Shown here: piece after piece, positions 12,038-35,626 of the stretch | How the letters are laid out: each line of letters starts with the position of its first letter | Position numbering within the stretch: the first letter of the stretch is position 1 | NCBI GenBank assembly: GCA_963765675.1 | Contig: CAVXXK010000001.1 | Coordinates: forward strand, 1,216,001 to 1,280,000 | DNA: 64,000 nt | Source of the DNA: an uncultured delta proteobacterium | GTDB taxonomy: Bacteria > Desulfobacterota > Binatia > Binatales > Binataceae | Direction: 5' to 3' | Notes under the pieces: generated by a model | Seen by the model: the letters and a program-made list of their open reading frames with translations, nothing else | What the model was told of the DNA's origin: nothing | Databases searched by the model: none | Program-made: the position numbers and the translations under genes

Positions 12038-13641
12038 GTGCCGCCGCGCTCCAGGTTCCGCTCGCGAGGCGATCGGTCAATCCGTGGCTGATAGCGTTTG
12101 CAGTGGTAATCCCGACCTTCATGGAGGTTCTGGATACTACAATCGCGAATGTTTCCTTGCGTTATATTGCCGGCGGTTTATCGGCTGCCAATGTTGACAG
12201 CGAGTGGGTCATCACCGCTTACCTCGCATCCAATGCGATCGTTCTGCCGATTTCCGGATGGCTCGCCCTGCGGCTCGGCAGGCGAAACTATTTCCTGCTC
12301 TCGATAGCCATCTTTACGTTGGCGTCCGCGTTGTGCGGAATGGCCGGAAGCCTTGGATTCATAATCGCATCTCGAGCGCTTCAGGGTGTGGCCGGCGGTG
12401 GTCTCCAACCCTCGAGCCAGGCTGTGCTTCTTGATGCGTTCCCGCAAGAGAAACAAGGCCAGGCGATGACGATCTTTGGGATGGCGGCACTTCTCGCGCC
12501 AGTCGTCGGGCCGACGCTCGGCGGCTATATCACCGACAACTACGGCTGGCGCTGGATCTTCTATCTGAACGTGCCTATCGGCCTGTTGGCCTATTTGATG
12601 TGCCACGCGCTGGTCCAAGATCCGGAATATCTAAAAGTTGAACGGGCCAAGAATCGGAATCGACGCGAACCCTTCGATATGCTCGGCCTCTGTCTGCTGA
12701 CTGTGACCATGGTTTGCTGGGAGGTCATGCTCAGCAAGGGGCAGGAGTGGGACTGGCTCGGCGATCCGTTCTATCGCGTGCAAACCCTGTTGATCCTCTT
12801 TGGGCTCGGCTTGGGCGGCTTGATCTATCGCGAATTGCATCTGCGCAATCCACTAGTCGCGCTCCGAACGATGGCCGACCGAAACTTTGGCACCTGCTGC
12901 GTCATTATCTTCTGCGCATACGGAGTGCTGTACGCGAACACCATTTCGCTTCCCGCTTTGCTGCAATCACTTTTTGGCTACGACGCCACAACCTCGGGGT
13001 TGGTTCTATCGCCATCAGGAATCTTCGCGATTATCATGCTCGTCGTCGTCGGCGCTCTGCTATCTCGCGGAGTCGATGCTCGATACCTGATGGCGGGCGG
13101 ATTACTCACGATGGCCGTGGGAAACTACTGGATGGCACTCCTTAACCTGAATATCAGTCCGTGGCAGGTGGTGTGGCCGAGGGTAGTGGTGATCGCGGGG
13201 TTGTCGATGCTATTCGCGCCTCTTAACGTGGCAGCGTTTATCTATCTACCGAAGGAGATCCGCGGCCCAGCGGTTGGATTGCTCGCTCTGCTGCGCAACG
13301 AAGGCGGCAGCGTGGGAACTTCGGTCGCGCAAATAATTCAGGAACGACGCGAGCAGTTTCATACCCTGCGGCTGAACGAAAGCCTCGATCCCCTGAACCC
13401 TCCGGTCAACTCTCTCTTGGCACGGGGCCAGGCGTATTTTCTGCAGCACAACGGCGATGCTGTGTTGTCACATCAAATGGCGCTAGGGGTTCTCGACCAG
13501 TCGCGAGCTCAGCAGGCCTCGGCATTGGCCTACTTTGACGTCTTCTCCTTTTCGGCTGCGGTCGGCTTGATGTTGGTATTCTCTATCCTGCTCATGCGTC
13601 GTTCGGTAGCCGAGAAAGGGGCCCCGATTGGTGGGGAGTAG
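12034..13641 (+). CDS. emrB: DHA2 (EmrB/QacA) MFS efflux permease
   Basis: FMEVLDTTIANV, GPTLGGYITDNYGWRWIFYLNVPIG, multiple TM helices; ATGA overlap with emrA. Confidence 0.94.
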   Translation: MSAAALQVPLARRSVNPWLIAFAVVIPTFMEVLDTTIANVSLRYIAGGLSAANVDSEWVITAYLASNAIVLPISGWLALRLGRRNYFLLSIAIFTLASALCGMAGSLGFIIASRALQGVAGGGLQPSSQAVLLDAFPQEKQGQAMTIFGMAALLAPVVGPTLGGYITDNYGWRWIFYLNVPIGLLAYLMCHALVQDPEYLKVERAKNRNRREPFDMLGLCLLTVTMVCWEVMLSKGQEWDWLGDPFYRVQTLLILFGLGLGGLIYRELHLRNPLVALRTMADRNFGTCCVIIFCAYGVLYANTISLPALLQSLFGYDATTSGLVLSPSGIFAIIMLVVVGALLSRGVDARYLMAGGLLTMAVGNYWMALLNLNISPWQVVWPRVVVIAGLSMLFAPLNVAAFIYLPKEIRGPAVGLLALLRNEGGSVGTSVAQIIQERREQFHTLRLNESLDPLNPPVNSLLARGQAYFLQHNGDAVLSHQMALGVLDQSRAQQASALAYFDVFSFSAAVGLMLVFSILLMRRSVAEKGAPIGGE

Positions 13642-15138: not shown

Positions 15139-15630
15139 ATGGCCGGGAAGAACCTCGGTGACGCCTTCGGCGGCAAGATCACCACCTTGGAAGAACAGCG
15201 CGCAATCTGGCTCGATGCCCTGCATGAGGACGCCATCTGGGAGGGACCGACGTTCGAGATCCCGGTGACGCTGATCGGGTTCGAGGCAGTGAGCCGTTTT
15301 ATGGAATTTCTGCTGAGTGTGGTTCCGCGCTTCAACACAACGCCGGCAGCGATGTATCCCACAGCCGATCCGGATACTACCATCGTGGAATCATCAGGCG
15401 GTGGCGATACGGTAAACGGCGGCCGCTATACGCAGCGCTACTTCACCTTGATCACCATCAAAAACGGTCAGGCGTTCCGCATGCGCGAATACGTCAATCC
15501 GTTCCAGACCTACAAGAGCTTCGGGAAGGAGCGCTGGGAGCGTGTCGTCGGCGAGATCGCGGCGAAGCACAACCGGCCCTGGCCGGCGTCGCAACTCCCC
15601 GACCCGATCGTGTTGCCGCCACTCAGGTAA
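15139..15630 (+). CDS. NTF2/SnoaL-fold protein (PhzA/PhzB-like)
   Basis: YPTADPD.TIVE, G.Y.QRY, MREYVNP; AGGAG RBS. Confidence 0.8.
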   Translation: MAGKNLGDAFGGKITTLEEQRAIWLDALHEDAIWEGPTFEIPVTLIGFEAVSRFMEFLLSVVPRFNTTPAAMYPTADPDTTIVESSGGGDTVNGGRYTQRYFTLITIKNGQAFRMREYVNPFQTYKSFGKERWERVVGEIAAKHNRPWPASQLPDPIVLPPLR

Positions 15631-15730
15631 AGGCTGTCGTCCGCATCGTGCGAGCAAACTCGCCTCAGATTGGGACCATGAAATGAGGGCGGCCTTGATG
15701 GCGGCCTCATTCCTGATGTCGCTCCCTTTG

Positions 15731-16873
15731 CTACTTTTTGCCCCGAGTTGGCAAACGAATGACGCCGGTTGCCAGCACCGACAGTTCGCCGTCCTGATTG
15801 ACCGCGCGCTGTGCGATCTCAGCATAATGCGCTCCCGCCTCGGCAAAGGTGCGTGTCACCTCACCATCGATGTAGAGCGTATCGCCGACCGGATTGTGAC
15901 GCCGAATTTTTACCTCGAGCTTTTGCAGGAAGCCGCTGTCGCCCATCCAATTTGTAAGATGATGGGACATCCAGGAGCATCGCTCCGGACCATAGTCGTA
16001 AGCGGCGGGCGTTCCGACCAGCGTGGCTAGGTCATCCTCCCAGTGCACGCGTTCGGGAACGTCGGGAATGCCGAATTTGTTGGGAATCCCCAGCCCGGGA
16101 TGCTTCTGCAACTGCTTCCACGCGAGCTTGTTTGCGCGGATGTAGAGGCCGCCCCATCCCTGCGCGAACGCGATGAAGCCGGTGACCGTCATGGGGCCCT
16201 TCACCATGGTCGGCAGTTTGTCGCCGATATGGACATCATCTACATAACGCGGGTTCGCGCCGCGGATTTCCTCGGCCTCATAGAGCGAGAAAATCTTCGC
16301 GAGGTCCTCGCGCGTATACTTTACCGGTGCACGGTTTTTCACCGATTCATACTTGGTACCCCGCTCGCGAGCGGTGTCGCGTTCGGTGCGGAAGCACCAG
16401 CTATCGCCCTCGGCGACGAGCTCGCGATTCTGATTGTAAAATTCGCATCGATAAATTTGCTGAATCGAGCGGCCGGCGAAGCGCGTCTCATGCTCCACGA
16501 GATCCTTCAGCCACACTTTCGTCGTGAACGAGTCGCCGAGCATCATCGCCTGATGCCAGGTGACATTGATGCCGGCGAACATCGCATGCACGCCGGCGAG
16601 ACCTCCGACGTATCCGCTGAACGATCTGTTGAGTGGAAAGATAAACGAGGGCGGCGCCTGCACGCGTCCGAACTCAGTGTTCGCGGCATAGTTCGGATCG
16701 CACCAAAGAGGATTGTCGTCGCCGATTCCGTGCGCCCAATGGCGGATGTTGTCGCGCGAGGCCTCGTAGCACCACGGCTCGAGTGAATCTTCAATCGGAA
16801 CCCCAATCAGCTTTTTCAGACCAACCAGACTCTCGTCGCTGATTACAGAAAAGCGCTGCCGAGTTTCAGACAT
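15731..16873 (-). CDS. Tandem MaoC-like double hot-dog acyl dehydratase
   Basis: IRHWAHGIGDDNPLW in the N-half; DVHIGDKLP, VHW, YDYGPER, NWMGD in the C-half. Confidence 0.85.
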   Translation of the reverse strand: MSETRQRFSVISDESLVGLKKLIGVPIEDSLEPWCYEASRDNIRHWAHGIGDDNPLWCDPNYAANTEFGRVQAPPSFIFPLNRSFSGYVGGLAGVHAMFAGINVTWHQAMMLGDSFTTKVWLKDLVEHETRFAGRSIQQIYRCEFYNQNRELVAEGDSWCFRTERDTARERGTKYESVKNRAPVKYTREDLAKIFSLYEAEEIRGANPRYVDDVHIGDKLPTMVKGPMTVTGFIAFAQGWGGLYIRANKLAWKQLQKHPGLGIPNKFGIPDVPERVHWEDDLATLVGTPAAYDYGPERCSWMSHHLTNWMGDSGFLQKLEVKIRRHNPVGDTLYIDGEVTRTFAEAGAHYAEIAQRAVNQDGELSVLATGVIRLPTRGKK

Positions 16874-17118
16874 GGAATATCTATAGACTGTCCAAATTTG
16901 CTGTCAACGGAAAACACGACTTAGTTCGGCAGGTTGGTTCACCCAACCGAAAGAGGCTTGTCTCGATGGCCTCGCGAAAATCGGCGCTGCAATTAGCGCG
17001 TCTCGCAAAAAGTCGTCTGCCTGATACCCGCCTCGATCTTGTGTCTGCTCTACAGTGTGCGATAAGCATGAAAATCTGAGCTTGGCGCGCGAACGATGAC
17101 GGACAAGTGGGATAAGAA

Positions 17119-18939
<1,821 letters not shown>

Positions 18940-19070: not shown

Positions 19071-20156
19071 TCAGGCGGCCTCTGCCTTTACGCCGTTGAG
19101 CTTCTTCAGCTCGGGCATCACATCGCTGGCGAACAGGCGCAGGCTCTTTTCCGCGTCCTCGATCGGCATGCCCGCGTAGCTGAATACGCCGGTGTAATGA
19201 TCCGCGTTCACTTTCACGCGGATTTCATCGATCTTGTTAAAACAATCCTCAGGCGTGCCCCACACCTGCAGGCTGAGGAAATATTCGACCGACGCGTCCT
19301 TGTTCGAGCCTTTCAGGTTTTTGGACATCTGCTCGTAATACTCGTAGCCCTTGGCCTTGCCGAAATGGTCGCTCGCCATCTCGTAGTGGCGCAGCGCCGT
19401 TTCCCAGTAGCCGCCGATATATTTCACCGCCATCTCGCGCGCGCGGTCGCGGCTCTTGTCGCAGAAAGTCCATCCGGCCGCGATCGTCGGCAGCGGCTCG
19501 CCGCCGTTAACCTGCTTGTAGATCGTTCGATACTCGGCCAGTTCCTGCGCGACCGCTTCCCACGGTTTCTGCGGGATGATCAGGATGCCGATACCGAGCT
19601 TGGCCATGATTCGCGCCGATTCGGGCGAGACTGCGGCGGCGTAGGTGCGGCCCTTGAACGACTTGAACGGCTTGGGACGGATATCGCGCCGGGGCTGCTT
19701 CAGGTACGTGCCGTCGGCCTCCATGTAGCCGCGCTCGAGGGCTTCGAGAATCGCAGCCGAATATTCGATAAAGCGATCGCGCGACTCGCCCATATCGAGC
19801 CGGAAGCCGTCGTACTCGATCCGCGCAAGTCCGCGCCCGAGTCCCAGGATCATGCGGCCGTTTGATTGATGATCAACCACCGACACCTGCTCGGCCACGC
19901 GAATCGGATCGTGCCACGGCACCACCACGACCATCGAGCCGAGCTGGACCTTCGTGGTGCGGCCGGCGTAGTAGCTCAGGAACTGCAGCACGTCGGGGCA
20001 CATCGTGTAGTCGTCGAAGTGATGCTCGACGCTCCAGATCGAATCGAATCCGAGCGGTTCGTAAAGGTCGCCGATCCGGAGATCGTCGCGATACACGTCG
20101 CGGTCCGAGCGGGTGTTATGGGGATTCTGGAAAATTACTGCGCCACCAACTTTCAT
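19071..20156 (-). CDS. LLM-class flavin-dependent monooxygenase
   Basis: GFDSIWSVEHHF, PWHDPIRVAE, GRMILGLGRG, WGTPE. Confidence 0.93.
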   Translation of the reverse strand: MKVGGAVIFQNPHNTRSDRDVYRDDLRIGDLYEPLGFDSIWSVEHHFDDYTMCPDVLQFLSYYAGRTTKVQLGSMVVVVPWHDPIRVAEQVSVVDHQSNGRMILGLGRGLARIEYDGFRLDMGESRDRFIEYSAAILEALERGYMEADGTYLKQPRRDIRPKPFKSFKGRTYAAAVSPESARIMAKLGIGILIIPQKPWEAVAQELAEYRTIYKQVNGGEPLPTIAAGWTFCDKSRDRAREMAVKYIGGYWETALRHYEMASDHFGKAKGYEYYEQMSKNLKGSNKDASVEYFLSLQVWGTPEDCFNKIDEIRVKVNADHYTGVFSYAGMPIEDAEKSLRLFASDVMPELKKLNGVKAEAA

Positions 20157-20348: not shown

Positions 20349-21506
20349 ATGCGAAGGGAAATTTTCACCGAAGAGCACGAGCTATTCCGCGCCCAGGTGC
20401 GCAGATTTGTCGAAAAGGAAATCGAACCCAAAGTTGCCGAATGGAATCGTGCCGGAATAAGCGACCGCGACTCCTGGCGCAAGCTTGGCGCGGCCGGCTA
20501 CCTGGGCGCGAACGCGCCGGCCGAGTTCGGCGGCTCGGGCGCCGATTTCCTCTACGACGCGATCGTGATCGAGGAGCTCGCGCGGGTGCGCGCGCACGGC
20601 CTCATGATGGGCCTGCATTCGGACATCTGCATGCCCTACATCAACACCTACGGCAGCGCCGAGCAGAAGCATCGCTACCTGACCGGCGCGATCAGCGGCG
20701 AGCTGATCCTCGCGATCGCGATGACCGAGCCGGGCACCGGCTCCGATCTGGCCGCGGTCCGCACCACGGCGCGCCGCGACGGCGACAGCTACGTCATCAA
20801 CGGCTCGAAGATTTTCATCTCGAACGGCCAGCTCGCCGATTTGGTGATCGTCGTGGCGAAGACCGATCCGAACGCGAACCCTCCCCATCGCGGAATCAGC
20901 CTGCTCCTGGTCGAGGGCAATGCTCCCGGCTTCGTGCGCGGGCGCAAGCTCGACAAGCTCGGCCTGCGGGGTCAGGACACCAGCGAGCTGTTCTTCGAGG
21001 ATTGCCGCGTGCCGGCGCAGAACCTGCTCGGAAAAGAGGGGCAGGGGTTCAAGATGCTGATGGAGAAGCTGCAGCAAGAGCGGCTGGTTGCCGCGATCGG
21101 CGCGGTCGAGAGCTCGCGGCGATGCCTCGACGACACGATCGCCTATACGAAAGAGCGCCGCGCCTTCGGCCAGCCGATCGCGTCGTTCCAGAACACGCAG
21201 TTTCGCCTCGCCGAGATGGCGACCGAGGTCGAGATCGGCCGCGTATTCGTCGACCGCCTGATGGCGGCGCACGTGCGCGGCGAAGAATTGGTGACCGAGG
21301 TCAGCATGGCGAAGTGGTGGACGACCGACCTGCTCAAGCGCGTCTCGAGCAATTGCCTGCAACTCTTCGGCGGCTACGGCTTCATGATGGAGTACCCGGT
21401 ATCAACCGACTACGCCGACGCCGCCGTGCAATCGATCTATGCAGGCACCAACGAAATAATGAAGGTAATAATCGCCCGCCGCATGGGCCTGGATAATCGC
21501 GGATGA
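20349..21506 (+). CDS. Acyl-CoA dehydrogenase (long-chain type)
   Basis: AMTEPGTGSDL, INGSKIFISNG, DTSELFFED, QQERL, GGYGFM.EY, IYAGTNEIMK. Confidence 0.96.
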   Translation: MRREIFTEEHELFRAQVRRFVEKEIEPKVAEWNRAGISDRDSWRKLGAAGYLGANAPAEFGGSGADFLYDAIVIEELARVRAHGLMMGLHSDICMPYINTYGSAEQKHRYLTGAISGELILAIAMTEPGTGSDLAAVRTTARRDGDSYVINGSKIFISNGQLADLVIVVAKTDPNANPPHRGISLLLVEGNAPGFVRGRKLDKLGLRGQDTSELFFEDCRVPAQNLLGKEGQGFKMLMEKLQQERLVAAIGAVESSRRCLDDTIAYTKERRAFGQPIASFQNTQFRLAEMATEVEIGRVFVDRLMAAHVRGEELVTEVSMAKWWTTDLLKRVSSNCLQLFGGYGFMMEYPVSTDYADAAVQSIYAGTNEIMKVIIARRMGLDNRG

Positions 21507-21569: not shown

Positions 21570-22794
21570 GTGAACACGAACACTTCGCGCAACGAAAGCG
21601 GGTCAGCGTACTACCTCTCCCAACCCGAGGCCGATCTCGACCTGGTATCGGTCGTCAGGGGCACGCCAAGCGGAGAATTACTGCGTCGCTATTGGCATCC
21701 GATCGCGGTCGCATCAGAGGTCGGCGAGCTTCCGGTCGCGGTGCGCGCGCTCGGCGAGGATCTGATTCTGTTCAAGACGCCAAAGGGCGAATTCGGGCTA
21801 GTGTATCCGCGATGCTGTCATCGGGGCACCACTTTGTACTACGGCAAAGTTGAAGAACGCGGCATTCGATGTTGCTATCACGGATGGCTATTCAGCCCGG
21901 ACGGCCGATGCCTCGATCAGCCGTGCGAACCCAATGGCGGCGACAAGCGCGACAACTATCGGCAGCCATGGTATCCGGTGCAGGAACGCTACGGTCTCGT
22001 CTTCGCCTATCTCGGGCCATCGGATCGCATACCCATACTTCCCCGATATGAGGCGCTGGAGGTCTTACAACCCGGTGAATGGATCGAACCGGACGGCCGG
22101 AGTCTCGGATCGGGCGGCGATGTGATCGCGCCTTGCAACTGGTTTCAGCATTGGGAAAACGTGATGGACCCATATCACGTCGCGATCCTTCACTCGGCAT
22201 TCAGCGGAATCCAGTTCATTCCCGAGATGGCTCAGATGCCCAACGTTTCCTTCGAGCCTTCGTCAATTGGCATTACCAGCACGCAGATCAGAAACCTCGA
22301 GGGCAAAGTTTTCCGCCGCGTCACCGAAGTGGCGATGCCGACGCTGCGCGTGGTTCCGAATCCGTGGGCGACCGGCTTCAATCGCCCGGTTGAATCGATT
22401 GGTTGGACGCTTCCGATCGACGACACGCACTACCGAATTTTCACTGCCGGCCGTGCCACGAAATCCGGACCTCTCTACTACCCTCCGAAAGGCCTCATGA
22501 GTGGGAATCGGCGCTGGCAGGACATGTCCGAAGAGGAGCGGCAGCGCAAGCCAGGCGATTGGGAAGCGCAAACCGGACAGGGAGCAATCACGTTCCACTC
22601 CGAAGAGCATCTAGCGTCTTCAGATCGCGGAATCGCGATGCTGCGGCGGTTTTTCCGCAAACAGATCGAGACCGTGGCCGCCGGCGGCAATCCCGGCCGG
22701 GACAATTTTCGAGGAAGGCGATGGAACAGTGAAATTCGCCGCCGGTAACTACCTGGAAGAACCCGCCAACACGGCATCGCCAACGATCCGATAG
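21570..22794 (+). CDS. Rieske non-heme iron oxygenase, phthalate-dioxygenase-type alpha subunit (apparent +1 frameshift near 22695)
   Basis: RYWHP, Rieske CCHRG...CCYHGW, mononuclear Fe ENVMDPYH..LH, SDRG; likely true end GTIFEEGDGTVKFAAGNY in the shifted frame. Confidence 0.9.
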
Positions 22795-22846
22795 AAGAAA
22801 AGCCGGTCCGGATGGACCGCCCCTTTGAGTCGGAGAGCTATATCGA

Positions 22847-24031
22847 TCAGCCGATTTCGCGGCCTACTACTGATACGAAGCTGACGCAGCGGCCTGGGGC
22901 TCCGCCTAGGTTGTGGGTCAGGCCGAGCTTGGGGTCGTTGATTTGACGCTTGCCCGCTTCGCCGCGGAATTGTAGCCACATCTCGTACATCATACGGAGG
23001 CCCGAGGCGCCGATCGGATGGCCGAATGACTTAAGCCCGCCGTCCGGATTAACCGGCAGCTTGCCGTCGAGGTCGAAATAGCCGTCCATCACGTCCTGCC
23101 ATGCTGTCCCGCGCTTGCTGAAGCCGAGATCCTCGTACAACACGAGCTCGGTCGGCGTGAAGCAATCGTGGACTTCCGCCATGCTGATCTGCGCGCGAGC
23201 GTCGGTGATTCCCGCCTGCGAGTAAGCGTCTTTCGCCGAGGCGACGACTTCGCGGAAGGTCGTGAAGTCATAGTCCTGAGACAGCGGCCCCTCGGCCGGT
23301 CCCGCGACGAACGACAGCGCCTTGATATAGATCGGATTCTTGCAGTACTTGTGCGCGTCTTCGGCGCGAACGATTATCGCCGCCGCCGAGCCGTCGGACA
23401 CGCCGGAGCAATCCATGATTCCGAGCGGGTCGGCGATTTTGGGCGAGTTCTTGATCGTCTCGATCGGCACTTCTTTCTGGAACTGCGCCTTCGGATTTTT
23501 TGCGCCGTTCTTGTGATTCTTCCACGCGATACGCGAAAGGACGTCCTTGCCCTTGTCGGGATCTAGTCCGTACTTCTTGAAGTACGCAGGCGCGAGCAGC
23601 GAGAACGACGCCGGAGCGGTCATGTTGCCGTCGGTGCCGTCGTTGGGAGGAGCGGACATCACCAGGCCCGAGTAGCCCGAGTCCTTGAGCTTCTCGACGC
23701 CTATCGCCATCACGATATCGAACGCACCCGACGCGACCGCGTAGCACGCCTGGCGCATCGCTTCGGACCCGGTCGCGCACATGTTCTCGACGCGGGTGAC
23801 GGGCTTGTACTGAATCTTGAGCGGCTCAGACAGCGTCAGGCCTGAGATTCCCGAGCCCATCGTGCCGAGCCAGTAGGCGTCGATATCGTCCGGGTTCACT
23901 CCCGCCGAGGCGTAGGCCTCGTAGGCGGCTTCGCACAGCAAATCTTCGGGACCTTTGTCCCAATGCTCGCCGAACTTGGTGCATCCCATTCCGATGATCG
24001 CGACGCGATCCTTGATTCCTCTGCTTGCCAT
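22847..24031 (-). CDS. Thiolase (archaeal/SCP2/PhlC-type acetyl-CoA acetyltransferase family)
   Basis: VENMCATGSEA (catalytic Cys), SDGSAA, AEVHDCF, GGLKSFGHPIGASG, THNLGG. Confidence 0.93.
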   Translation of the reverse strand: MASRGIKDRVAIIGMGCTKFGEHWDKGPEDLLCEAAYEAYASAGVNPDDIDAYWLGTMGSGISGLTLSEPLKIQYKPVTRVENMCATGSEAMRQACYAVASGAFDIVMAIGVEKLKDSGYSGLVMSAPPNDGTDGNMTAPASFSLLAPAYFKKYGLDPDKGKDVLSRIAWKNHKNGAKNPKAQFQKEVPIETIKNSPKIADPLGIMDCSGVSDGSAAAIIVRAEDAHKYCKNPIYIKALSFVAGPAEGPLSQDYDFTTFREVVASAKDAYSQAGITDARAQISMAEVHDCFTPTELVLYEDLGFSKRGTAWQDVMDGYFDLDGKLPVNPDGGLKSFGHPIGASGLRMMYEMWLQFRGEAGKRQINDPKLGLTHNLGGAPGRCVSFVSVVGREIG

Positions 24032-24049
24032 GAACCGTTCTCCTCGCGC

Positions 24050-25465
24050 CTAGCGCTTGGGCCGTGCCTTCCAAAAATAGTTATGGACGCCGTCGGCAGT
24101 AAACAGGCGGCGGAATGTCATTTCCACTTCGTCACCGATCGCGACTTTCTCGGGCTCACAATCCGTCATCTCGCACAGAAAGCGCCCGCCACCTTCAAAG
24201 TCTATCACAACATTGACCGTGGGGGGATTGAGCGAGAATGCCAGCCGGTCGATTGCGTAGGTCGCGATCCGCGCGGTGCGGTCCGCGAACGCATACGGCT
24301 CCATCTTGTCGAACGCGCGGCACTTGACGCATACCCGCTGCGGCGGAAGCTGCGGAGTTCCGCACGCGGTGCATTTCGAGCCAACGAAGCCAAACTTCCA
24401 CTGCTGCGACCGCAGCATCGGGGGACCTGCCGGACGATCCGGATCGGGACGACGAGGGGGCTCAGTCGGCAGGATCTCGCGCCACTTGAGGTAGCTGCCG
24501 TAGGTCACGTCGCCCTTGGATTCGATCTGCATCCCGACCGAACGGACCGGCTTGAAGCTCGCGATCGCCGGTGTCGCGCGCAGCAGGATTGCGTCCGCGC
24601 CGTCGGCGACAGAGGCGACCAGCACCCGCTCTCCCGGCTTGAGCGAAGGCAGCGCGCCCGCGAGCATCAGGCCAGGATGCGCCGCGCCGGTCTGGCCGAC
24701 GGTGAGCGCGAAGTTGTCGCCGAGCTTCGCGGCGTCCAGTTTCATGCCGCGGATAATCTCGTCAGCGGCGCGCGGGTTGGGCGCGTCGAGAATAACCTTA
24801 GTCAGGTCGCCGGGTGCGACTTTCGCCTTCGCCAGAACGTCCGCAATCGCCTTGCCCAACAGCGGCGAGTACGCCTGCGTCAGTGTGAAGCGCTCTTCCC
24901 ACGAATGCCCGAAGCGCTCGCCAGGAGCGCGCCAGGTGTCCATGAACTCGCGGGTGAGTGACGCGGTGGCTTCGATTTCCGCTATGACGTGCTCGGTCCC
25001 GAGCACGAAGGCGACCGCGCCGTCACCGTTTTGCTGCTCGGCTTTGCCTTCGGGTGCGCCCAGCCGCGCGTCGCCGATCGCAACGATTGCGTTGGTTTTC
25101 GAGCCGGACGCGGCGTCGGCGCCCTGCAGAATCGCGGAGATTCCCGCGCGCACCGAGCCGGTCAGGTCGACCGCGCGAATATTGGGTGGCATCCGGGTGG
25201 CGGCGGCGACGATCGCGGCGTTGAGCTTTTCACCATAGGGCGGAGTCGTAGTCGCGAATATCAGCGCTCCGATCGGTGCCGATGCGGAGGGCGCTGCCTT
25301 CAGCGCGTCGCGCACCGCTTCGACCGCCATCGAGACCGAGTCCTCATCGAAGCTCGCGACGGAGCGTTCGCCCTTCGAGGCGGCAACTCCCAGCATCTGC
25401 GCGATCGCGGCGCGTTTGAGCCGCCGGTAAGGGATATAAGAGCCGTATGAAACAATTCCAGCCAT
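24050..25465 (-). CDS. HMG-CoA-synthase-fold domain fused to a DUF35 Zn-ribbon/OB-fold domain
   Basis: GIVSYGSYIP, ERSVASFDEDS.SMAVEA, GDGAVA; C-terminal CTAC...CVKC, GDEVEMTFRRL, YFWKARP; start trimmed to ATG 25465. Confidence 0.9.
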   Translation of the reverse strand: MAGIVSYGSYIPYRRLKRAAIAQMLGVAASKGERSVASFDEDSVSMAVEAVRDALKAAPSASAPIGALIFATTTPPYGEKLNAAIVAAATRMPPNIRAVDLTGSVRAGISAILQGADAASGSKTNAIVAIGDARLGAPEGKAEQQNGDGAVAFVLGTEHVIAEIEATASLTREFMDTWRAPGERFGHSWEERFTLTQAYSPLLGKAIADVLAKAKVAPGDLTKVILDAPNPRAADEIIRGMKLDAAKLGDNFALTVGQTGAAHPGLMLAGALPSLKPGERVLVASVADGADAILLRATPAIASFKPVRSVGMQIESKGDVTYGSYLKWREILPTEPPRRPDPDRPAGPPMLRSQQWKFGFVGSKCTACGTPQLPPQRVCVKCRAFDKMEPYAFADRTARIATYAIDRLAFSLNPPTVNVVIDFEGGGRFLCEMTDCEPEKVAIGDEVEMTFRRLFTADGVHNYFWKARPKR

Positions 25466-25736
25466 GTTGCGCATTAAAGGCTGTGCCGATTCATCCGTCA
25501 ACCCGAGCGGCAGGAGCATCGCGCGTGGTGGCGCGCGCCGTAGTTTGGAGGATGCAAGAAAATCCGCTCAGATATTGAGGATCCGGGTGTTTCGGGGATT
25601 CGCCTCTATCCTCACGAAGGGAAAAAAACTATTATTATTTCCATAACGCTCGGATGCCTTCCTGTACTCAGACCCGGGATGGTCCCGGGGTCTCTGTTCG
25701 ATTGCTTCCCGGCATTTACTGATGGAGGGGCACTTA

Positions 25737-26093
25737 ATGCCCAGCAAATTGTACGTAGGCAACCTTGCCTACTCGGTTACTAGCCACGACTTGGAAGATC
25801 TGTTCGCGCAGGCCGGCGCCGTGCAGAGCGCTGCGGTCATCACGGACAAGTTCTCGGGTCAGTCGAAGGGATTCGGATTCGTCGAGATGTCGACGCCGGA
25901 GGAAGCTGCAAAGGCAATCCAGCTCCTGAACGAGACCGAGCTCAAGGGACGCAACATCCGCGTCAACGAAGCCAAGCCGCGTGAATCCGGCTTTGGTGGC
26001 GGAGGCGGTGGCGGCGGACAGCGTCGCGGCGGAGGCGGCGGTGGTGGCGGCGGTGGAGAGCGCCGAGGCGGTGGCGGCGGAAACCGCTGGTAA
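25737..26093 (+). CDS. RRM RNA-binding protein with Gly-rich tail
   Basis: RNP2 LYVGNL, RNP1 KGFGFVEM, VNEAKPRE, GGGG-RGG tail; GGAGG RBS. Confidence 0.96.
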   Translation: MPSKLYVGNLAYSVTSHDLEDLFAQAGAVQSAAVITDKFSGQSKGFGFVEMSTPEEAAKAIQLLNETELKGRNIRVNEAKPRESGFGGGGGGGGQRRGGGGGGGGGGERRGGGGGNRW

Positions 26094-27008: not shown

Positions 27009-30000
27009 CTACGCGGTCAGCTCGTCAAGCAGATTCTTCGCAGCCTTCAGGTCGGCGGTGTCGAGGCCCTCGGTGAACCAGTTGTAGATCTCCGCGAGCA
27101 TCGAGCGCGCCTCGTCGCGGCGGTCGGTACTCATCAGCATCCGCGCGAGCGAGGTCGTCGCGCGCAGTTCGAGCGATTTCGCCCCCTGCTGTCGGGCCTT
27201 CTTGATCGCGTGCTCGACCGACGCTCTCGCCAGAGCCGGATCGGAAGGACTCTGACCCAGGAGCAACTCGCCGCGAAGACGATTAATTTCCGCTTCCCAG
27301 AAACATTCGCCGCTGCGACGGACCAGGTCCAGGGCGTCGCCGATTGCCTTCAAACCATGCTCGATGCGTCCGGCTCTCAGGCACGCATCGGCGAGAGTCG
27401 CGAGACTGAGCGTGAGCCACAACTCCTCTCGGTTGGCCGAAAGTGCATCGGTTTCTTCGCGTATCTGCCCTATTCCCTCCTCCGCTCTTCCAAGCTCGGT
27501 TAAGGCCCAACCTTTAACAACTCGCGCATGGCGCAGAACGTAGAGGAACCCCACGTCCTCCGCTGTGTTTATCGCGGCCCCGGCGATTTCCAGCGCAAGC
27601 TTCGGTTCCAGCATCATGCGATGAACCAGTGCCTTCTCGTACAAGGCGAAAGCTGCCGACATGGCGTCTCCAAGTTCATTCGCAAGCGAAACGGCCCGCT
27701 CCGCGCATCGCCGCGCCGCATCGGGACGACCGCGCAGCCATGATAGCTGCGCTTGCCATGCATAACCGCACACGGCCGGATGATGAGCGGTGTAGAGCGG
27801 GACGGCAACCGAACGAAGCTTCGACTCGAACAGCTCGAGCCCCCGCTCGACATGGCGTTGTGAGGTCTCCAGCTCACCTGCGGAAAGCGCCACCGACCAG
27901 TCATGATGGATCGCCTCGAGAAGGAAAACCGGATCGGGGTGGCGATCGACGAAATCCCAGATCGGCTTCTGCCGTTCGCGGGCGCCGCTCAAGTTGCCGC
28001 CAACGTAGAGCAGTCCAAACAATCCAACCAGTAGCGCGAACTGCTGCTCGGGTGTGGCTCCTGTCTCAGCAAGCCGCTCGGCGCGAAGATAGGCCCTCTC
28101 GGTTTCCGGCGCCGCCCACCCTTTGGTGGCCATCAGCGCGGGACCAAGGCTGGTTTGGAGCGCGAATTCGCGCCGGTCCCGCTCGGGGCTGGATGGCGTC
28201 CGTTCAAGTAATTCCAAGGCGGCGGTTAGGTTCCGCATCGCCTCGCCGTACGCCAGTCGCCGAACGGCCCGGAGACCTGCGCTTTCGAGATAGCTCGAGT
28301 GCCTTCGCGGAATTTCCGCTGCGGCTGTAATGATGGGCCAGTTCGTCGAGGTGGTCGTCGATTGAATTTGTGTAGAGACTCTCGAGAGCCGCGCCGATTC
28401 GTCCATGAAGTTGTCTGCGCCGTTCCATCAGTACCGAGTTGTACGAGACCTCCTGAGTCAGCGCGTGCTTGAAGGTGTATTCAGAATCACCGATGGCCGG
28501 CTGCTCGTAGATGAACTCGCCGAGCTGGAGGTCATCGAGCAGCCGCATGGTCTCGTCATCCGGGATCGAGACCACCGCGCGAATCAGCGACAGCGGAAAT
28601 TCGCGGCCAATTACCGCCAGCGTCTGTAACAGGTCTTTGGCATCCTGCGGCAGGCGGTCGATGCGCGCGGCGAGAATCGCCTGAACGGTCGGCGGAATCT
28701 TCAACTCCGCCAACGACCGGATGAGCTTCACCGCCCCGCCGTCACGCACCAGCGCGTTCTCGTCGAACAGGACCTGCACCGTCTCTTCCATGAAGAACGG
28801 ATTGCCCTCGGTCTTCTCGATAATCAGCCGCTTGAGCGGCGCGAGTTCGGTACCGTCGCCGAGCAGCGCGGACAACATCTCCTCGGCGGATTCTTTGCCC
28901 AGCGGGTCCAGGCGTAATTGAATGTAGTAGGTCTTGCTGTTCCACTGATGCGAGTACTCGGGGCGATAATTGACCAGCAGCAGGATCTTCGCCGTGCCGA
29001 TCGAGTCGGCGAGGAGATTCAAGAATGCCTGCGTCTCCTCGTCGATCCAGTGCAGGTCCTCGAAAATCACCATCAGCGGCTTATTCATCGACTCTCGCAG
29101 TAGGATGCGCTTGATCGCGTCGAGCGTGCGGCGCCTCTTCACCTGCCCGTCCATTTGCGCCAGCGGATCGTCGCCCTCGACAATGCCGAGCAGTACGAAA
29201 AGGTACGGCAGCGTATCTTCAAGGGAACGATCGAGCGTCAAGACCTTTCCGTTGACCTTCTCGCGCCGCGTGCGCGCGTCATCTTCCGAGGTGATGCGGA
29301 AGTAACCGTGGAGCAACTCAATTATGGGCAGATACGCTGAAGCCTTGCCGTGCGAGACCGAGAACGTTTCCAACACCGTCCAGCCCGACTGGTTCTTGGC
29401 CTTGAACTCGAAGAACAGGCGTGACTTGCCGGTGCCCGCTTCCGCGATCGCGGCGACGATCTGCCCGTGGCCGTCGCGCGCCTGCTCGGCGGCGTTGCGC
29501 ATCGCATCCATTTCGCGCTCGCGGCCAACGAACTTGGTAAGTCCGCGTCCCGCCGAGCGTTGCAGGCGCGTGCGCAACGGACCCAGTCCGGTCACCTCGT
29601 AAACGTTGACCGGATCAGTTGACGCCTTTGACCTTGGTCGGCCCGAGCGGCTTGAGCGCGAAATAGCCCTCGGCCAGCTTGCGCGTCTGCTCGCTGATCG
29701 CGATCGAGCCCGTGGGCGCGAGCGCCTGCATCCGCGAGGCGAGATTGGTCGTATGCCCGATCGGCGTGTACTCGGTGTGACCGCCGCCGGTAGCGATCGA
29801 GCGCACCACGACCTCGCCGGTGTTCACGCCGACGCGCGCTTCGATCGGCAGATTGCCAGCCTCGCGCAATCTCGCCGAGTAGCGGGTCAGCTGTTCCTGC
29901 ATTCGGAGCGCGGGATACAAGGCTCGCTGCGGATGATCCTCGTGTGCGACCGGAGCGCCGAACAGCGCGAAGATGCAGGTGAAAGCTTTCGATGATGGAC

Positions 30001-30166
30001 CCGCAGACGCGTGCGCTCCGAGCGCGGCCCCGCACTCTCCACAAAAGCGTTTGTCCGCTGGATTATCGGCCCCGCATTTCTGACAAAGATTTGCGAGTGC
30101 CGCGCCGCAATCACCGCAGAACTTCTTGCCGGGTGGGTTTTCAGTTTTGCAATTCAAGCAACGCAT
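27009..30166 (-). pseudogene. Double-zinc-ribbon / class III cyclase / AAA ATPase / TPR protein, with an internal deletion and two frameshifts
   Basis: Four CxxC; IFALFGAPVAHEDH, RVGVNTGEV, Walker A AEAGTGKS, Walker B IFEDLHWID, TEGNPFF, WFTEGLDT tail; +1 shifts near 29619 and 28293; first half of the cyclase domain missing. Confidence 0.88.
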
Positions 30167-32569: not shown

Positions 32570-33604
32570 TTAGCGGAAGCCCTGGATCGTGACCACTGCG
32601 GTCTGTCCGGTGCGCAACGGATATTCCGGATCGCTCTGATCGAGGGTGATCCGCACCGGAAAGCGCTGCGACAAACGAACCCAATTGAGGGTCGGCTCGA
32701 CCTGCGGCAGCCCATCGACGCTGGCGCCGTTTTGCTGGTAGAGCGCCCAGCCGACGCCCTGCACGGTTCCGCGGAACGGATGATTCGGATAGCTCAGCAG
32801 ATAGATCTGCGCGGTCATCCCGGGGCGGATATTTCCGAGAAAATTCTCGCGGAAATTCGCGACGACGTACCAGACCCGGTTGTCGACCAGGTTGAGCACG
32901 TCCTTGCCCTCGTTGGCGTACTGTCCGACCGCGATATTGAGATTGGTGACGTAGCCGTCGAAGGGGGCGCGCACGTAGCAATAGTTAACATTCAGGCGCG
33001 CGTTGGTGACGTCGGCCTCGGCCTGCTTGCGGCGCGCGTTGATATCGCCGTATTGGCCGAGTTCGCTCTGGGCCTGGCTGACGGTCGCGCGCGAATTCTC
33101 GACTGCGGCCTCCGCCGCACGCAGCTTGCTGCGCGCATCGAAGACGTCGTTGGCGGTGACGTAATGCTTGGCGAGTAGAGGCTCGATGCGATGCAGATAC
33201 TGGCGCGCGTATGCCAGGTCGGCCTCGCGCCGCTTCTGCTCGGAGCTTGCGGCGCGAATGGCGTCGTCGAGACCGTTTATCTGCAGGTTGGTCAGTTCAA
33301 GCTTGGCGACCAGCGCGTCGAGTATCGCCTGGTAGGGCCGCGGATCGACGATAAACAGCATATCGCCCTTGTGAACGTGCTGATTGTCGACGATCGGCAG
33401 CTTGATGATCGGTCCGCTGACGTGCGGCGCGACGCCGATCAGATTGGCCCGGACGTAAGCGTCGTCGGTGCGCGGATAGATGTAGTAAAGGCGCGTGACG
33501 AATACGATCGCGACGATCGCGGCCACGATAATCGCAACGCTCAGCAATCTTCCGATTGCTTTCAGTGCCGGATTGTCCGCCGGTACCTCGTCTCCAGGAG
33601 CCAT
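32570..33604 (-). CDS. mdtN: MdtN/AaeA-type membrane fusion protein
   Basis: YPRTDDAYV, VRAPFDGYVTNL, ANFRE, LNWVRLSQRFPVRI; follows ytcA. Confidence 0.88.
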   Translation of the reverse strand: MAPGDEVPADNPALKAIGRLLSVAIIVAAIVAIVFVTRLYYIYPRTDDAYVRANLIGVAPHVSGPIIKLPIVDNQHVHKGDMLFIVDPRPYQAILDALVAKLELTNLQINGLDDAIRAASSEQKRREADLAYARQYLHRIEPLLAKHYVTANDVFDARSKLRAAEAAVENSRATVSQAQSELGQYGDINARRKQAEADVTNARLNVNYCYVRAPFDGYVTNLNIAVGQYANEGKDVLNLVDNRVWYVVANFRENFLGNIRPGMTAQIYLLSYPNHPFRGTVQGVGWALYQQNGASVDGLPQVEPTLNWVRLSQRFPVRITLDQSDPEYPLRTGQTAVVTIQGFR

Positions 33605-33614
33605 GGCGCCGCCG

Positions 33615-33893
33615 TCACACCCGATTAAAAAAGATTACCCAGAAGACGCATCCGAGCAGAACCGCAAGGCTCGCGTAAACCGCGGGCAACGGCCACATGT
33701 AACGCTCGACGCCGACCGCGACAAAGATTGGCCGCAGCAGCGCGGCGAGGATCGCGCCCACGATCGCGGCGACGAGCCAGCTCGGAAAATTCGCGCCCGC
33801 GATATTGACGATCGGATCGCATCCCGCCGCCGTGCACAGCGCGCAGGCCGCGATCACCGGACGCAGCGGAATCGATAGTGCCCTATGATTCAT
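33615..33893 (-). CDS. ytcA: YtcA family lipoprotein
   Basis: AAGC lipobox, then P..NIAGANFPSWL and two TM helices, directly upstream of an MdtN-like gene. Confidence 0.85.
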   Translation of the reverse strand: MNHRALSIPLRPVIAACALCTAAGCDPIVNIAGANFPSWLVAAIVGAILAALLRPIFVAVGVERYMWPLPAVYASLAVLLGCVFWVIFFNRV

Positions 33894-33947
33894 GCGGGAA
33901 AGATTCTACGCGCCGGATTGCGCGTAAGCATCATCGCCGGGCGATCA

Positions 33948-33971
33948 AAAATTATCATCAAAATTATCATC
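33948..33971. repeat. Perfect 12-bp tandem repeat in the divergent promoter region
   Basis: aaaattatcatc x2. Confidence 0.75.
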
Positions 33972-34084
33972 GAAACCGTCCTGGATCGGCGCGATTTCAG
34001 AGCGCAGGCGGACTAGGCTTGTGCGGACCGGGGCCGGGATAAACCGGATCGGCGGACTTCGCAAGCGTCAATCTCGAGGGCTTT

Positions 34085-35626
34085 ATGTACGCGAAAACGA
34101 TTACGGATTATAACCTTCGCGCGGACGTTCGGCAGAGACGCAAATTAACGCGCGCGAGAATTCCCGTCCGCGCGGCGGCGCTGCTTCTTGCCGCGTGGAT
34201 CGCGGGATGCGCCAGCTACGCCGAGCGGCCCGAGATTACGCCCGATCTCTACTCGCCCGCCGCGGCAGATAGTCCATGGACTCCGGCCGCGCGCGAACAG
34301 CCGCAGTATCACATTGCGGCGGTGACGCAGGAGATCGCGCAAGCAGGTTCGGAAAATCATTCGGCCGCGCACGGGTCGCGCTACGACCTGCCGCGGCTGA
34401 TCGATCTGGCGCTGCGGCTGAATCCGAACACTCGCCAGTCGTGGCAATTGGCGCGTTCAGCGGCCGCATCCTATGGAATCGCGCAGGCGCCCTACTATCC
34501 GCGCGCGAGTTTTGAGGCCGACGGCGGCTACAACCGCCTGCTGTTCCAGGTCAATCCGGGACCTGCCGTGATCAAGCAATGGTCGGCGTCGCCGATGGCC
34601 GAGCTGACCTACACGCTGCTCGATTTCGGCCGGCGCAGCGCGGATTCCGAGCTGGCGCGACAGGAACTCGCGGCGGCGAACTTCGGCTTCAATCGAACGA
34701 TGCAGACCGTCGTGTACGAGGTGCAGAGCGCCTACTACTCTCTCGCCGCGGCGCAGGCCGCCGTACAGGCCGCGACCGAAAACGTGGAGCTGGCGCGCAC
34801 GGACCTCGAGGCGGTTTCGCGCCGCGTAAATCTGGGACTCGCGACCGAGCCGGCATTGCTGCTCGCGCGCGAAAGTGAGGCGCAGGCCGAGTATCAGCTT
34901 GAAAGCGCGCACACCCTCGTCAACGATTCGCGCGCGGGGCTCGCGGTCGCGGTCGGAGTGGCGGCCGATCAGCCGCTCGAAATTGAGAGCCTCGACCATC
35001 AGCCAGTGCCGAAAACACTCGGCAAGGAAGTCGAGCAGTTGATCACCGAAGCGGTTCGCGAGCGTCCCGACCTCGAGGCGGAAGCGGCGAGGTATCGCGC
35101 CAGCGAAGCCGCGGTGAAGCGCTCGCACGCCGAATGGTTTCCGGTGCTGACGGCGGGCGCCAACTATGGCGAGCAGGCGTGGTGGTACACGTTCTCGAAC
35201 TCGAACACGATCAAGAGCGCCTCGCCGCAGTACGAAGCGCTGCTAACGTTGCGTTGGGACATTTTTACCGGCTTCAGCCGTCTCGACGACGATCGGCGCA
35301 CCGAGGCCAATCGCAAGGCCGAGCGCGAGAGCGTCAAGTCGCTTGAGCTCGAAACGATCGCGGAGGTCTGGCGCTCCTACTACGACTTTCAGACCGCGGT
35401 GAAGAAATACCAGTTCGCGCAGGCGCTGCTTGCCGCCGCGCAGGAATCCTACAACGACAATCTCGACACCTACCGCCAGGGCCTGAGCACAATCGTCGAG
35501 CTCCTGACCGCCGACACCGCGCTGGCGAACGCCCGCCTGACGATGGTCCAATCCACCGCGGAGCTACTGACCTCGTCAGCAACGGTCGCATACGCGGTTG
35601 GCGCGGTGGATCTGCCGCGGCGATGA
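34085..35626 (+). CDS. TolC/MdtP-type outer-membrane efflux lipoprotein
   Basis: LLLAAWIAGC lipobox, LIDLALRLNP, LLDFGRR, RPDL, YRQGLSTIVELL; exact start uncertain. Confidence 0.9.
   Translation: MYAKTITDYNLRADVRQRRKLTRARIPVRAAALLLAAWIAGCASYAERPEITPDLYSPAAADSPWTPAAREQPQYHIAAVTQEIAQAGSENHSAAHGSRYDLPRLIDLALRLNPNTRQSWQLARSAAASYGIAQAPYYPRASFEADGGYNRLLFQVNPGPAVIKQWSASPMAELTYTLLDFGRRSADSELARQELAAANFGFNRTMQTVVYEVQSAYYSLAAAQAAVQAATENVELARTDLEAVSRRVNLGLATEPALLLARESEAQAEYQLESAHTLVNDSRAGLAVAVGVAADQPLEIESLDHQPVPKTLGKEVEQLITEAVRERPDLEAEAARYRASEAAVKRSHAEWFPVLTAGANYGEQAWWYTFSNSNTIKSASPQYEALLTLRWDIFTGFSRLDDDRRTEANRKAERESVKSLELETIAEVWRSYYDFQTAVKKYQFAQALLAAAQESYNDNLDTYRQGLSTIVELLTADTALANARLTMVQSTAELLTSSATVAYAVGAVDLPRR

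Follow-up and report, generated by a model that had tools for sequence, protein, structure and literature searches.

A pseudo-HMG-CoA synthase–DUF35 fusion and an SCP2-type thiolase encoded in a Binatia genome probably form a heteromeric degradative thiolase

A stretch of 64,000 nucleotides (the window) from the genome of an uncultured soil bacterium of the class Binatia (family Binataceae; positions 1,216,001 to 1,280,000 of contig CAVXXK010000001.1, assembly GCA_963765675.1) contains two adjacent genes, one encoding a fusion of a 3-hydroxy-3-methylglutaryl-coenzyme A (HMG-CoA) synthase-like (HMGCS-like) domain with a DUF35 module, and the other encoding an SCP2-type thiolase. The pair is likely to be a bicistronic operon specifying a heteromeric degradative 3-ketoacyl-CoA thiolase, in which the fused pseudo-synthase/DUF35 protein serves as a scaffold and probably forms part of the coenzyme A (CoA) site. 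This architecture is already in print, with the first bacterial example published in 2026, and it is a widespread design. The pattern of domains and motifs observed in the pair is far beyond chance. The gene pair has the following features, with positions given in the window:

24050..25465, minus strand: gene of the pseudo-HMGCS–DUF35 fusion, 471 residues (list of open reading frames (ORFs), Pfam, PDB matches, AlphaFold2 model).
24476..25465, minus strand: HMGCS-like domain with a thiolase fold, approximately residues 1–330 of 471, in which Glu-Cys-His-Asn are replaced by Thr-Val-Asp-Gln (alignment to 6esq_I).
24386..24475, minus strand: inter-domain linker rich in Pro and Arg, approximately residues 331–360 (translation; AlphaFold2 model without regular secondary structure at about 329–346).
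24050..24385, minus strand: DUF35 module composed of a rubredoxin-like four-Cys zinc ribbon and an OB fold, with a conserved C-terminal NYFWKARP motif (Pfam, 6esq_E).
24032..24049, minus strand: 18-nt intergenic spacer with the ribosome-binding site GAGGAG 8 nt upstream of the thiolase ATG (sequence).
22847..24031, minus strand: gene of the SCP2-type thiolase, 394 residues, with Cys85 (ENMCATG), H288-D-C290-F, and G-H338-P (NF004810, 6esq_A).
22804..22819, minus strand: terminator-like hairpin with a T-rich tail, 28 nt past the thiolase stop codon (consensus match only).

The longest ORF of the fusion gene spans 24050-25519 on the minus strand and encodes 489 residues. In a scan of 1.84 billion representative proteins, full-length homologues aligned from residue 19 of this ORF, or from a position a few residues off. 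Therefore, the methionine at 25465 is the likely start of the predicted 471-residue fusion. The residue numbers T91, V123, D245, and Q276 used below refer to the 489-residue ORF. A preliminary description of this DNA, made from the sequence alone, had proposed the ORF pair, its 18-nt gap, and the start at 25465. All three are borne out by the ORF list and by the homologues, which begin at that methionine, and the motifs that it quoted are present in the translations of the fusion (DLTGSVRAG, TTTPPY, and LDAPN) and of the thiolase (ENMCATG, HDCF, and GHP). The ribosome-binding site and the terminator-like hairpin frame the gene pair. The consensus scan returned six terminator-like hairpins in the region, compared with 3.7 expected, and the promoter scan of the region returned no sigma-70-like sites.

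The fusion protein contains the Pfam domains ACP_syn_III_C, zf-ChsH2 (8.6e-08), and OB_ChsH2_C (9.1e-10), of which the ribbon and the OB fold constitute DUF35. Residues 371–485 match the DUF35 subunit of the archaeal thiolase/HMGCS/DUF35 complex (6esq_E, 3.2e-11), so that the fusion to a zinc-ribbon/OB DUF35 domain claimed in the preliminary description holds. The four cysteines of the zinc ribbon are at least 90% conserved in an alignment of 69 sequences. A 69-sequence alignment was the input for an AlphaFold2 model of the fusion, which has a pLDDT of 96.1 and a pTM of 0.95. The best NCBIfam matches of the fusion are models of archaeal HMGCS, and both scores are below the cut-offs (NF003274, 185.5 vs 244; TIGR00748, 124.8 vs 353). 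A sequence comparison of the N-terminal 330 residues with the PDB gave PhlA as the top match (9skh_A, 5.5e-28), together with archaeal HMGCS (6esq_I, 1.2e-24) and a second PhlA entry (9.4e-23). The first ranks of the Foldseek search are occupied by the HMGCS-like subunits of three solved complexes, the archaeal one, PhlABC, and MucABC. PhlA ranks first by Foldseek E-value, and the best fit is that of archaeal HMGCS 6et9_I (TM score on the target 0.91, root-mean-square deviation 1.8 Å), with PhlA and MucA at approximately 0.85. The location of the HMGCS-like domain and DUF35 on a single polypeptide is a feature of the complex type known from Pseudomonas fluorescens, and it is present here.

The catalytic tetrad of archaeal HMG-CoA synthase was named as E82, C114, H238, and N270 (PMC12960953). 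In a HMMER alignment of the fusion to archaeal HMGCS 6esq_I, these residues correspond to T91, V123, D245, and Q276, respectively, and the equivalences come from sequence alignment, not superposition. The same columns were inspected in 135 full-length fusions, which comprise the window protein and the listed representatives of 50%-identity clusters with lengths of 440–530 residues (length led to the exclusion of 16 of the 150 listed). The Glu and the Cys are absent from every fusion, whereas the His is present in one and the Asn in 42. The tetrad is also gone from the fused forms encoded on haloarchaeal plasmids. Because no member of the set keeps the Glu or the Cys, and because the haloarchaeal forms lack the tetrad too, the loss is old and family-wide. 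Judged by its residues, the HMGCS-like domain is catalytically dead, as the preliminary description had maintained, with no intact triad in the alignment.

Purifying selection acts on the dead domain, which is nevertheless less constrained than its partner domains. Ratios of non-synonymous to synonymous substitution rates (dN/dS) were calculated between the window and 64 Binatia loci. The median for the HMGCS-like domain, 0.18, exceeds those for the thiolase (0.089) and DUF35 (0.055), and among the seven loci nearest to the window the dead domain gives values of 0.02–0.07. Several charged residues of this domain reach 90% conservation or more across the 69 sequences, among them R106, located beside the former Cys position, and R134. 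This selection and conservation, together with the retention of the domain in no fewer than 135 clusters at 50% identity, would fit a new catalytic or substrate-binding activity of the domain within a two-step complex, for example holding the bulky acyl part or acting as a hydratase, a decarboxylase, or an acyl-transfer station. We consider a new activity quite unlikely. Most of the conserved residues also occur in archaeal HMGCS according to a pairwise alignment, which points to roles in the fold, the interface, or CoA contacts, and the P. fluorescens complex showed thiolysis alone, albeit with few substrates tried (PMC12960953).

The thiolase scores 622.2 bits against NCBIfam model NF004810 (PRK06157, ‘acetyl-CoA acetyltransferase’), the cut-off of which is 403. 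The cut-off is passed in 17 of 21 Binatia genomes, a count that includes the window's own genome (G000) and one unpublished genome (G010). Among solved structures, the closest is the archaeal thiolase (6esq_A, 2.9e-62), followed by BbsB (8.5e-42), PhlC (1e-32), and the aldolase Ltp2 (3e-28). The equivalog model of BbsB, NF053628, gives 149.5 bits with a cut-off of 750. Cys85, HDCF (288–291), and GHP (337–339) do not vary among the 20 partner thiolases of Binatia and Proteobacteria that were aligned, which agrees with the earlier claim that the thiolase had kept its catalytic residues. The pattern of residues is that of an SCP2-type thiolase, not that of an acylase or an aldolase. In the window's own genome, a single canonical thiolase (TIGR01930, 410 bits) is accompanied by nine thiolase-like matches of the SCP2 type. 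Therefore, the fusion/thiolase pair is an extra, specialised module. The genome also contains two more stand-alone DUF35 genes adjoining SCP2-type thiolase-like genes, at C1:969034-970662 (L002) and C1:1936846-1938333 (L003); thus, it has at least three DUF35/thiolase modules, only one of which includes a pseudo-HMGCS domain.

According to the preliminary description, the two genes could encode a two-chain scaffolded acyltransferase/thiolase resembling PhlABC. A Friedel-Crafts C-acyltransferase of the PhlABC/MucABC type would load the acetyl group of acetyl-CoA onto Cys85 and transfer it to a small acceptor molecule, phenolic or enolic. Such an enzyme would be built from the same three folds with a dead HMGS-like subunit, and PhlA is the top PDB match of the fusion by sequence and by Foldseek E-value. 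Nevertheless, this activity is very unlikely for the pair from the window and was not borne out. HDxF is missing from PhlC and MucB (PMC12960953), whereas HDCF is invariant in the partner thiolases. The thiolase is far nearer to the archaeal acetyl-CoA acetyltransferase (ACAT) than to PhlC, and a scan of 23 ORFs in the region 10529-41276 found no domain of a polyketide synthase (PKS) or a non-ribosomal peptide synthetase (NRPS). Moreover, the P. fluorescens complex of like architecture acts as a thiolase (PMC12960953).

Relatives of the fusion carry the source name ‘hydroxymethylglutaryl-CoA synthase’, and the top NCBIfam matches of the fusion are archaeal HMGCS models, which together would suggest a true HMG-CoA synthase/thiolase pair feeding the mevalonate pathway, as the automatic annotations of the relatives say. 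The closest proteins and loci are from metagenome-assembled genomes of Candidatus Binataceae, and the window's own genome, likewise metagenome-assembled, has a size of 4.5 Mb and is 95.6% complete. HMG-CoA reductase has no matches in this genome, and no match for mevalonate kinase reaches the cut-off. In contrast, Dxr is present over its cut-off with 486 bits (C4:287407-288549). Because HMG-CoA reductase was not found and Dxr is present, the pair is not a mevalonate enzyme, as had been stated before. The replacement of all four catalytic residues and the scores under the curated cut-offs point in the same direction, and as far as sequence can show, a role in the mevalonate pathway is already refuted and its residual probability is negligible. 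The best match of the genome to the DXS model TIGR00204 reaches 72.9 bits, with a cut-off of 466, on an apparent split transketolase (C6:115545-117121). As no DXS is over the cut-off, either dxs lies within the missing approximately 4% of the genome or 1-deoxy-D-xylulose 5-phosphate is made otherwise.

Searches with single-protein queries found 80 related Binatia loci and 79 related proteobacterial loci, and 41 plasmid records were also covered. The thiolase gene is directly downstream of the fusion gene in 74 of the 80 Binatia loci and in 74 of the 79 proteobacterial loci; six Binatia loci lack it there, at least four of which (L011, L015, L067, and L069) are at contig ends. The scan of representatives retrieved 3663 proteins at E ≤ 0.001, and 624 of them at E ≤ 1e-30. 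In a sample of the class, 99 of 121 Binatia genomes have a match at E ≤ 1e-50, with one to four copies each, and the proportion in the window's own family is 13 of 15. Relatives occur in Pseudomonadota, Actinomycetota, Chloroflexota, Bacteroidota, one species of Bacillota, and haloarchaea. The haloarchaeal plasmid loci of Haloarcula (L166) and Natrononativus (L167) encode a pseudo-HMGCS–DUF35 fusion without the tetrad in a reversed gene order, with the thiolase gene first and overlapping the fusion start by 4 nt. Two relatives of the fusion are longer, P0205 (911 residues) and P0185 (722 residues). The source names in the P0205 cluster are ‘HMG-CoA synthase/NAD(P)-dependent dehydrogenase (short-subunit ...)’ or short-chain dehydrogenase/reductase (SDR) family oxidoreductase, and going by these names, P0205 looks like a covalent link of the scaffold to a probable 3-hydroxyacyl-CoA dehydrogenase. 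A literature search on thiolases of Binatota found nothing related.

In cultured bacteria, the pair sits in operons of the β-oxidation type. The gene order of the Variovorax locus is SDR, MaoC, fusion, thiolase, acyl-CoA dehydrogenase (ACAD), CoA-transferase, and a binding protein for tripartite tricarboxylate transporter (TTT) uptake, and in Achromobacter, too, the pair has SDR and MaoC genes at its flanks. In plasmid pDK3 of Rhodococcus DK17, a second thiolase, an SDR, and a crotonase are located downstream of the pair. The order in Novosphingobium ES2-1 is ACAD, SDR, fusion, thiolase, two enoyl-CoA hydratases, Ltp with DUF35, P450, and FadD3, and it is the same as that of the edc oestrogen-degradation cluster of N. 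tardaugens, as given in the available part of its description. An SDR gene is nearby in 66 of the 79 proteobacterial loci.

The pair could also be interpreted as a biosynthetic condensing complex. Such a complex would perform a non-decarboxylative Claisen condensation for reverse β-oxidation, or for synthesis of fatty acids independently of acyl carrier protein or of polyhydroxyalkanoates, in the manner of the Sulfolobus ketothiolase/DUF35 complex with a reductase and MaoC. In favour of this interpretation, thiolase reactions can run in either direction, the pair has SDR and MaoC neighbours as described above, one relative is named as an SDR fusion, and an archaeal ketothiolase/DUF35 complex for synthesis is described in the accessible part of a preprint (bioRxiv 10.1101/2024.07.05.601840). 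We regard biosynthesis as unlikely, since the Variovorax operon also contains ACAD, CoA-transferase, and uptake binding protein genes, the conserved neighbour in Binatia is ACAD, the pair is present in an oestrogen-degradation cluster (PMC7793797, in its available part), and the P. fluorescens complex made no acetoacetyl-CoA from acetyl-CoA (PMC12960953).

The neighbours of the operon in the window include:

20349..21506, plus strand: ACAD, convergent to the operon; the most conserved neighbour in Binatia (Pfam).
19071..20156, minus strand: luciferase-like monooxygenase; second in neighbour conservation in Binatia (Pfam).
21570..22748, plus strand: Rieske-domain oxygenase between the thiolase and ACAD; outside the conserved set (Pfam).

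An ACAD orthologue with at least 78% identity is present in 28 of the 80 Binatia loci, and the luciferase-like monooxygenase in 22, at an identity of at least 80% in 20 of them. A Rieske gene occurs in three of the 80 loci, and genes for Baeyer-Villiger monooxygenase (BVMO), MaoC, and SnoaL in none. Because of these counts, a pathway for alicyclic ketones composed of BVMO, MaoC, and Rieske enzymes was rejected as the core context of the pair. The window itself contains, at 15139-18939, genes for a SnoaL-like protein, a 380-residue dehydratase of the MaoC/FAS1 type, and a type I BVMO (785 bits with the PtlE model, cut-off 1100). This block is missing from all 80 related loci, even those that are 97% identical, and looks like a strain-specific insertion.

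We propose a mechanism in which the SCP2-type thiolase would be the sole catalyst and the fusion protein would perform no chemistry of its own. Cys85 would act as the nucleophile, the Cys of HDCF together with the His of that motif as the acid/base, and the His of GHP would complete the site. A 3-oxoacyl-CoA would be cleaved with CoA, yielding a shorter acyl-CoA along with acetyl-CoA or propionyl-CoA. The zinc-ribbon/OB module of DUF35 would hold the thiolase and the HMGCS-like domain together, which is the role of DUF35 in the solved complexes (archaeal, PhlABC, and MucABC). The dead domain would persist as a scaffold and would probably also provide the other half of a shared CoA-binding chamber. 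The physiological substrate is probably a non-standard acyl-CoA in a route resembling β-oxidation. The thiolytic direction is presumed by analogy with the assayed P. fluorescens complex.

Five soil or rhizosphere metatranscriptome runs contained only 5–10% of the sampled words. In four runs, 3, 21, 6, and 24 RNA contigs with at least 90% likeness covered the thiolase gene, the fusion gene was almost uncovered, and one RNA-library contig of 207 nt crosses the thiolase/fusion junction.

Several observations weigh against the interpretation as a degradative heteromeric thiolase. Thiolases are reversible, so the sequence does not fix the direction of the reaction in vivo. We infer that the fusion and the thiolase form a complex from homology and synteny only. 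The likeness to the P. fluorescens complex is one of architecture and residues, and that enzyme was assayed on acetoacetyl-CoA only (PMC12960953). The conserved neighbours in Binatia are few (of the 80 loci, 28 have ACAD and about 20 have the luciferase-like monooxygenase), and ACAD is convergent to the operon and not co-transcribed with it. No conserved SDR or hydratase was found next to the pair in the 80 Binatia loci. Since the Binatia neighbours are so few, the catabolic interpretation leans on distant relatives with 34–42% identity. The HMGCS-like domain evolves two to three times faster than its partner domains, which fits a scaffold but also partial relaxation, and the dN/dS pairs all include the window sequence and are therefore not independent. 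Presence in an RNA library is no proof of transcription, and the sparse coverage of the fusion gene proves nothing.

Other parts of the window were also annotated. A protein of 123 residues with an RRM RNA-binding domain is encoded at 25722-26093 on the plus strand, divergently from the operon, and is 97–100% identical in the closest relatives. The region 27009-30166 on the minus strand contains three consecutive ORFs, encoding a double zinc ribbon with an adenylate/guanylate cyclase domain, an AAA_16 ATPase, and a TPR protein. The ORFs overlap and probably represent one long signalling protein or an operon, which may be split by frame calls. Two sets of efflux genes, at 10529-13641 and 32570-35626, encode an HlyD-type adaptor with an MFS pump and an HlyD-type adaptor with an outer-membrane factor, respectively. 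The second set is syntenic with the thiolase operon in approximately 29 of the 80 Binatia loci, with no evident functional link.

Thousands of such proteins are labelled ‘HMG-CoA synthase’ by automatic annotation, and on that basis Binatia, like many other bacteria, would wrongly be credited with a mevalonate pathway. This large family occurs in catabolic clusters for pollutants and steroids, and only one of its members has been assayed, with one substrate. If the contribution of the dead domain and the range of 3-oxoacyl-CoAs cleaved by these complexes were established, a step of oestrogen degradation that is so far unassigned would be filled in, and the selection that maintains a pseudo-enzyme would be explained.

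The archaeal thiolase/HMGCS/DUF35 complex (6ESQ) has the same three folds as the window pair and provides its closest solved thiolase, which has HDCF, and its closest HMGCS-like structure. However, the archaeal HMGCS is active and feeds the mevalonate pathway, and its DUF35 is a separate chain, whereas the window encodes a dead synthase fused to DUF35 and its genome has no detected HMG-CoA reductase. PhlABC (5M3K/5MG5) and MucABC (9VBO/9VBT) resemble the pair in combining a dead HMGS-like subunit, DUF35, and a catalytic subunit with the thiolase fold. They differ in consisting of three separate chains, in a thiolase subunit without HDxF, and in their location in type III PKS or NRPS-PKS clusters; in the window pair, HDCF is kept, DUF35 is fused, and no biosynthetic cluster was found. 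The available portion of PMC12960953 reports that the archaeal interfacial CoA chamber is retained in PhlABC and MucABC, with DUF35 bridging two thiolase-fold subunits.

DUF35 also binds SCP2-type thiolase-fold enzymes for bulky CoA esters in the benzoylsuccinyl-CoA thiolase BbsAB (7PXP), the BbsB subunit of which uses HDxF, and in the aldolases ChsH2(DUF35)-Ltp2 and Shy-Sal (6OK1; PMC12329534, as far as its accessible text states). Unlike the window pair, neither the BbsAB nor the Ltp2/Sal systems have an HMGCS-like domain, and the DUF35 of BbsAB is a separate subunit. In the same part of PMC12329534, the DUF35-bound aldolases Ltp2 and Sal are described as lacking the nucleophilic Cys and having YDHF or YDCY instead of HDCF. 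The window thiolase has Cys85 and HDCF and in this differs from a retro-aldolase of the Ltp2/Sal type.

A thiolase and an ‘HMG-CoA synthase’ are encoded by EGO55_13550/13555 of the edc cluster of N. tardaugens, and in the available part of that paper the authors were unable to assign EGO55_13555 to a step (PMC7793797). The locus on the ES2-1 plasmid, which is syntenic to edc, encodes a full-length fusion with 34% identity and a thiolase with 46% identity to those of the window. The edc pair is a distant paralogue within a full set of β-oxidation and steroid genes, whereas the conserved genes of the Binatia locus are ACAD and the luciferase-like monooxygenase only.

The closest counterpart in architecture is the P. 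fluorescens complex. It comes from a study in which 1,030 bacterial HMGS/ACAT/DUF35 loci were mined, 1,001 of them without biosynthetic neighbours (Liao et al., Nat Commun 2026, PMC12960953). PfACAT/HMGS-DUF35, one of these 1,001 previously uncharacterised loci and composed of a fused HMGS-DUF35 without the tetrad and an ACAT with Cys, HDxF, and GHx, was expressed and assayed. It made neither HMG-CoA nor acetoacetyl-CoA, it thiolysed acetoacetyl-CoA, and the mutation H294Y in the HDxF motif of the ACAT nearly abolished the thiolysis (PMC12960953). The window pair has in common with it the fused HMGS-DUF35, the loss of the tetrad, the adjacent ACAT with Cys, HDxF, and GHx, and the lack of PKS or NRPS neighbours, and it differs in coming from another phylum. 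A match to an already characterised enzyme, which the preliminary description had named as counting against it, thus exists in part: a complex with this architecture was produced and assayed, and it performed thiolysis of acetoacetyl-CoA only. No Pseudomonas record was found among the 80 Binatia loci, 41 plasmid records, 79 proteobacterial loci, and the clusters of 10 representatives. The His of HDCF in the Variovorax partner thiolase is residue 294, the same number as in H294Y, which is a weak hint only.

The P. fluorescens type has been regarded as an evolutionary intermediate without a pathway (PMC12960953). In contrast, the family of the window pair seems to be an old one that is maintained by selection and forms part of catabolic clusters. 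Its age, its constraint, its multiple copies, and its location in catabolic operons argue mildly against the view of an intermediate without a job. We speculate, with somewhat less than even confidence, that the pair is not between jobs and represents an old, selected class of catabolic thiolases with a split site. The dead domain would supply the CoA half of the chamber and be obligatory for activity, and each of the one to four paralogues per genome would serve a different bulky or branched 3-oxoacyl-CoA, for example in the unassigned step of oestrogen A/B-ring degradation.

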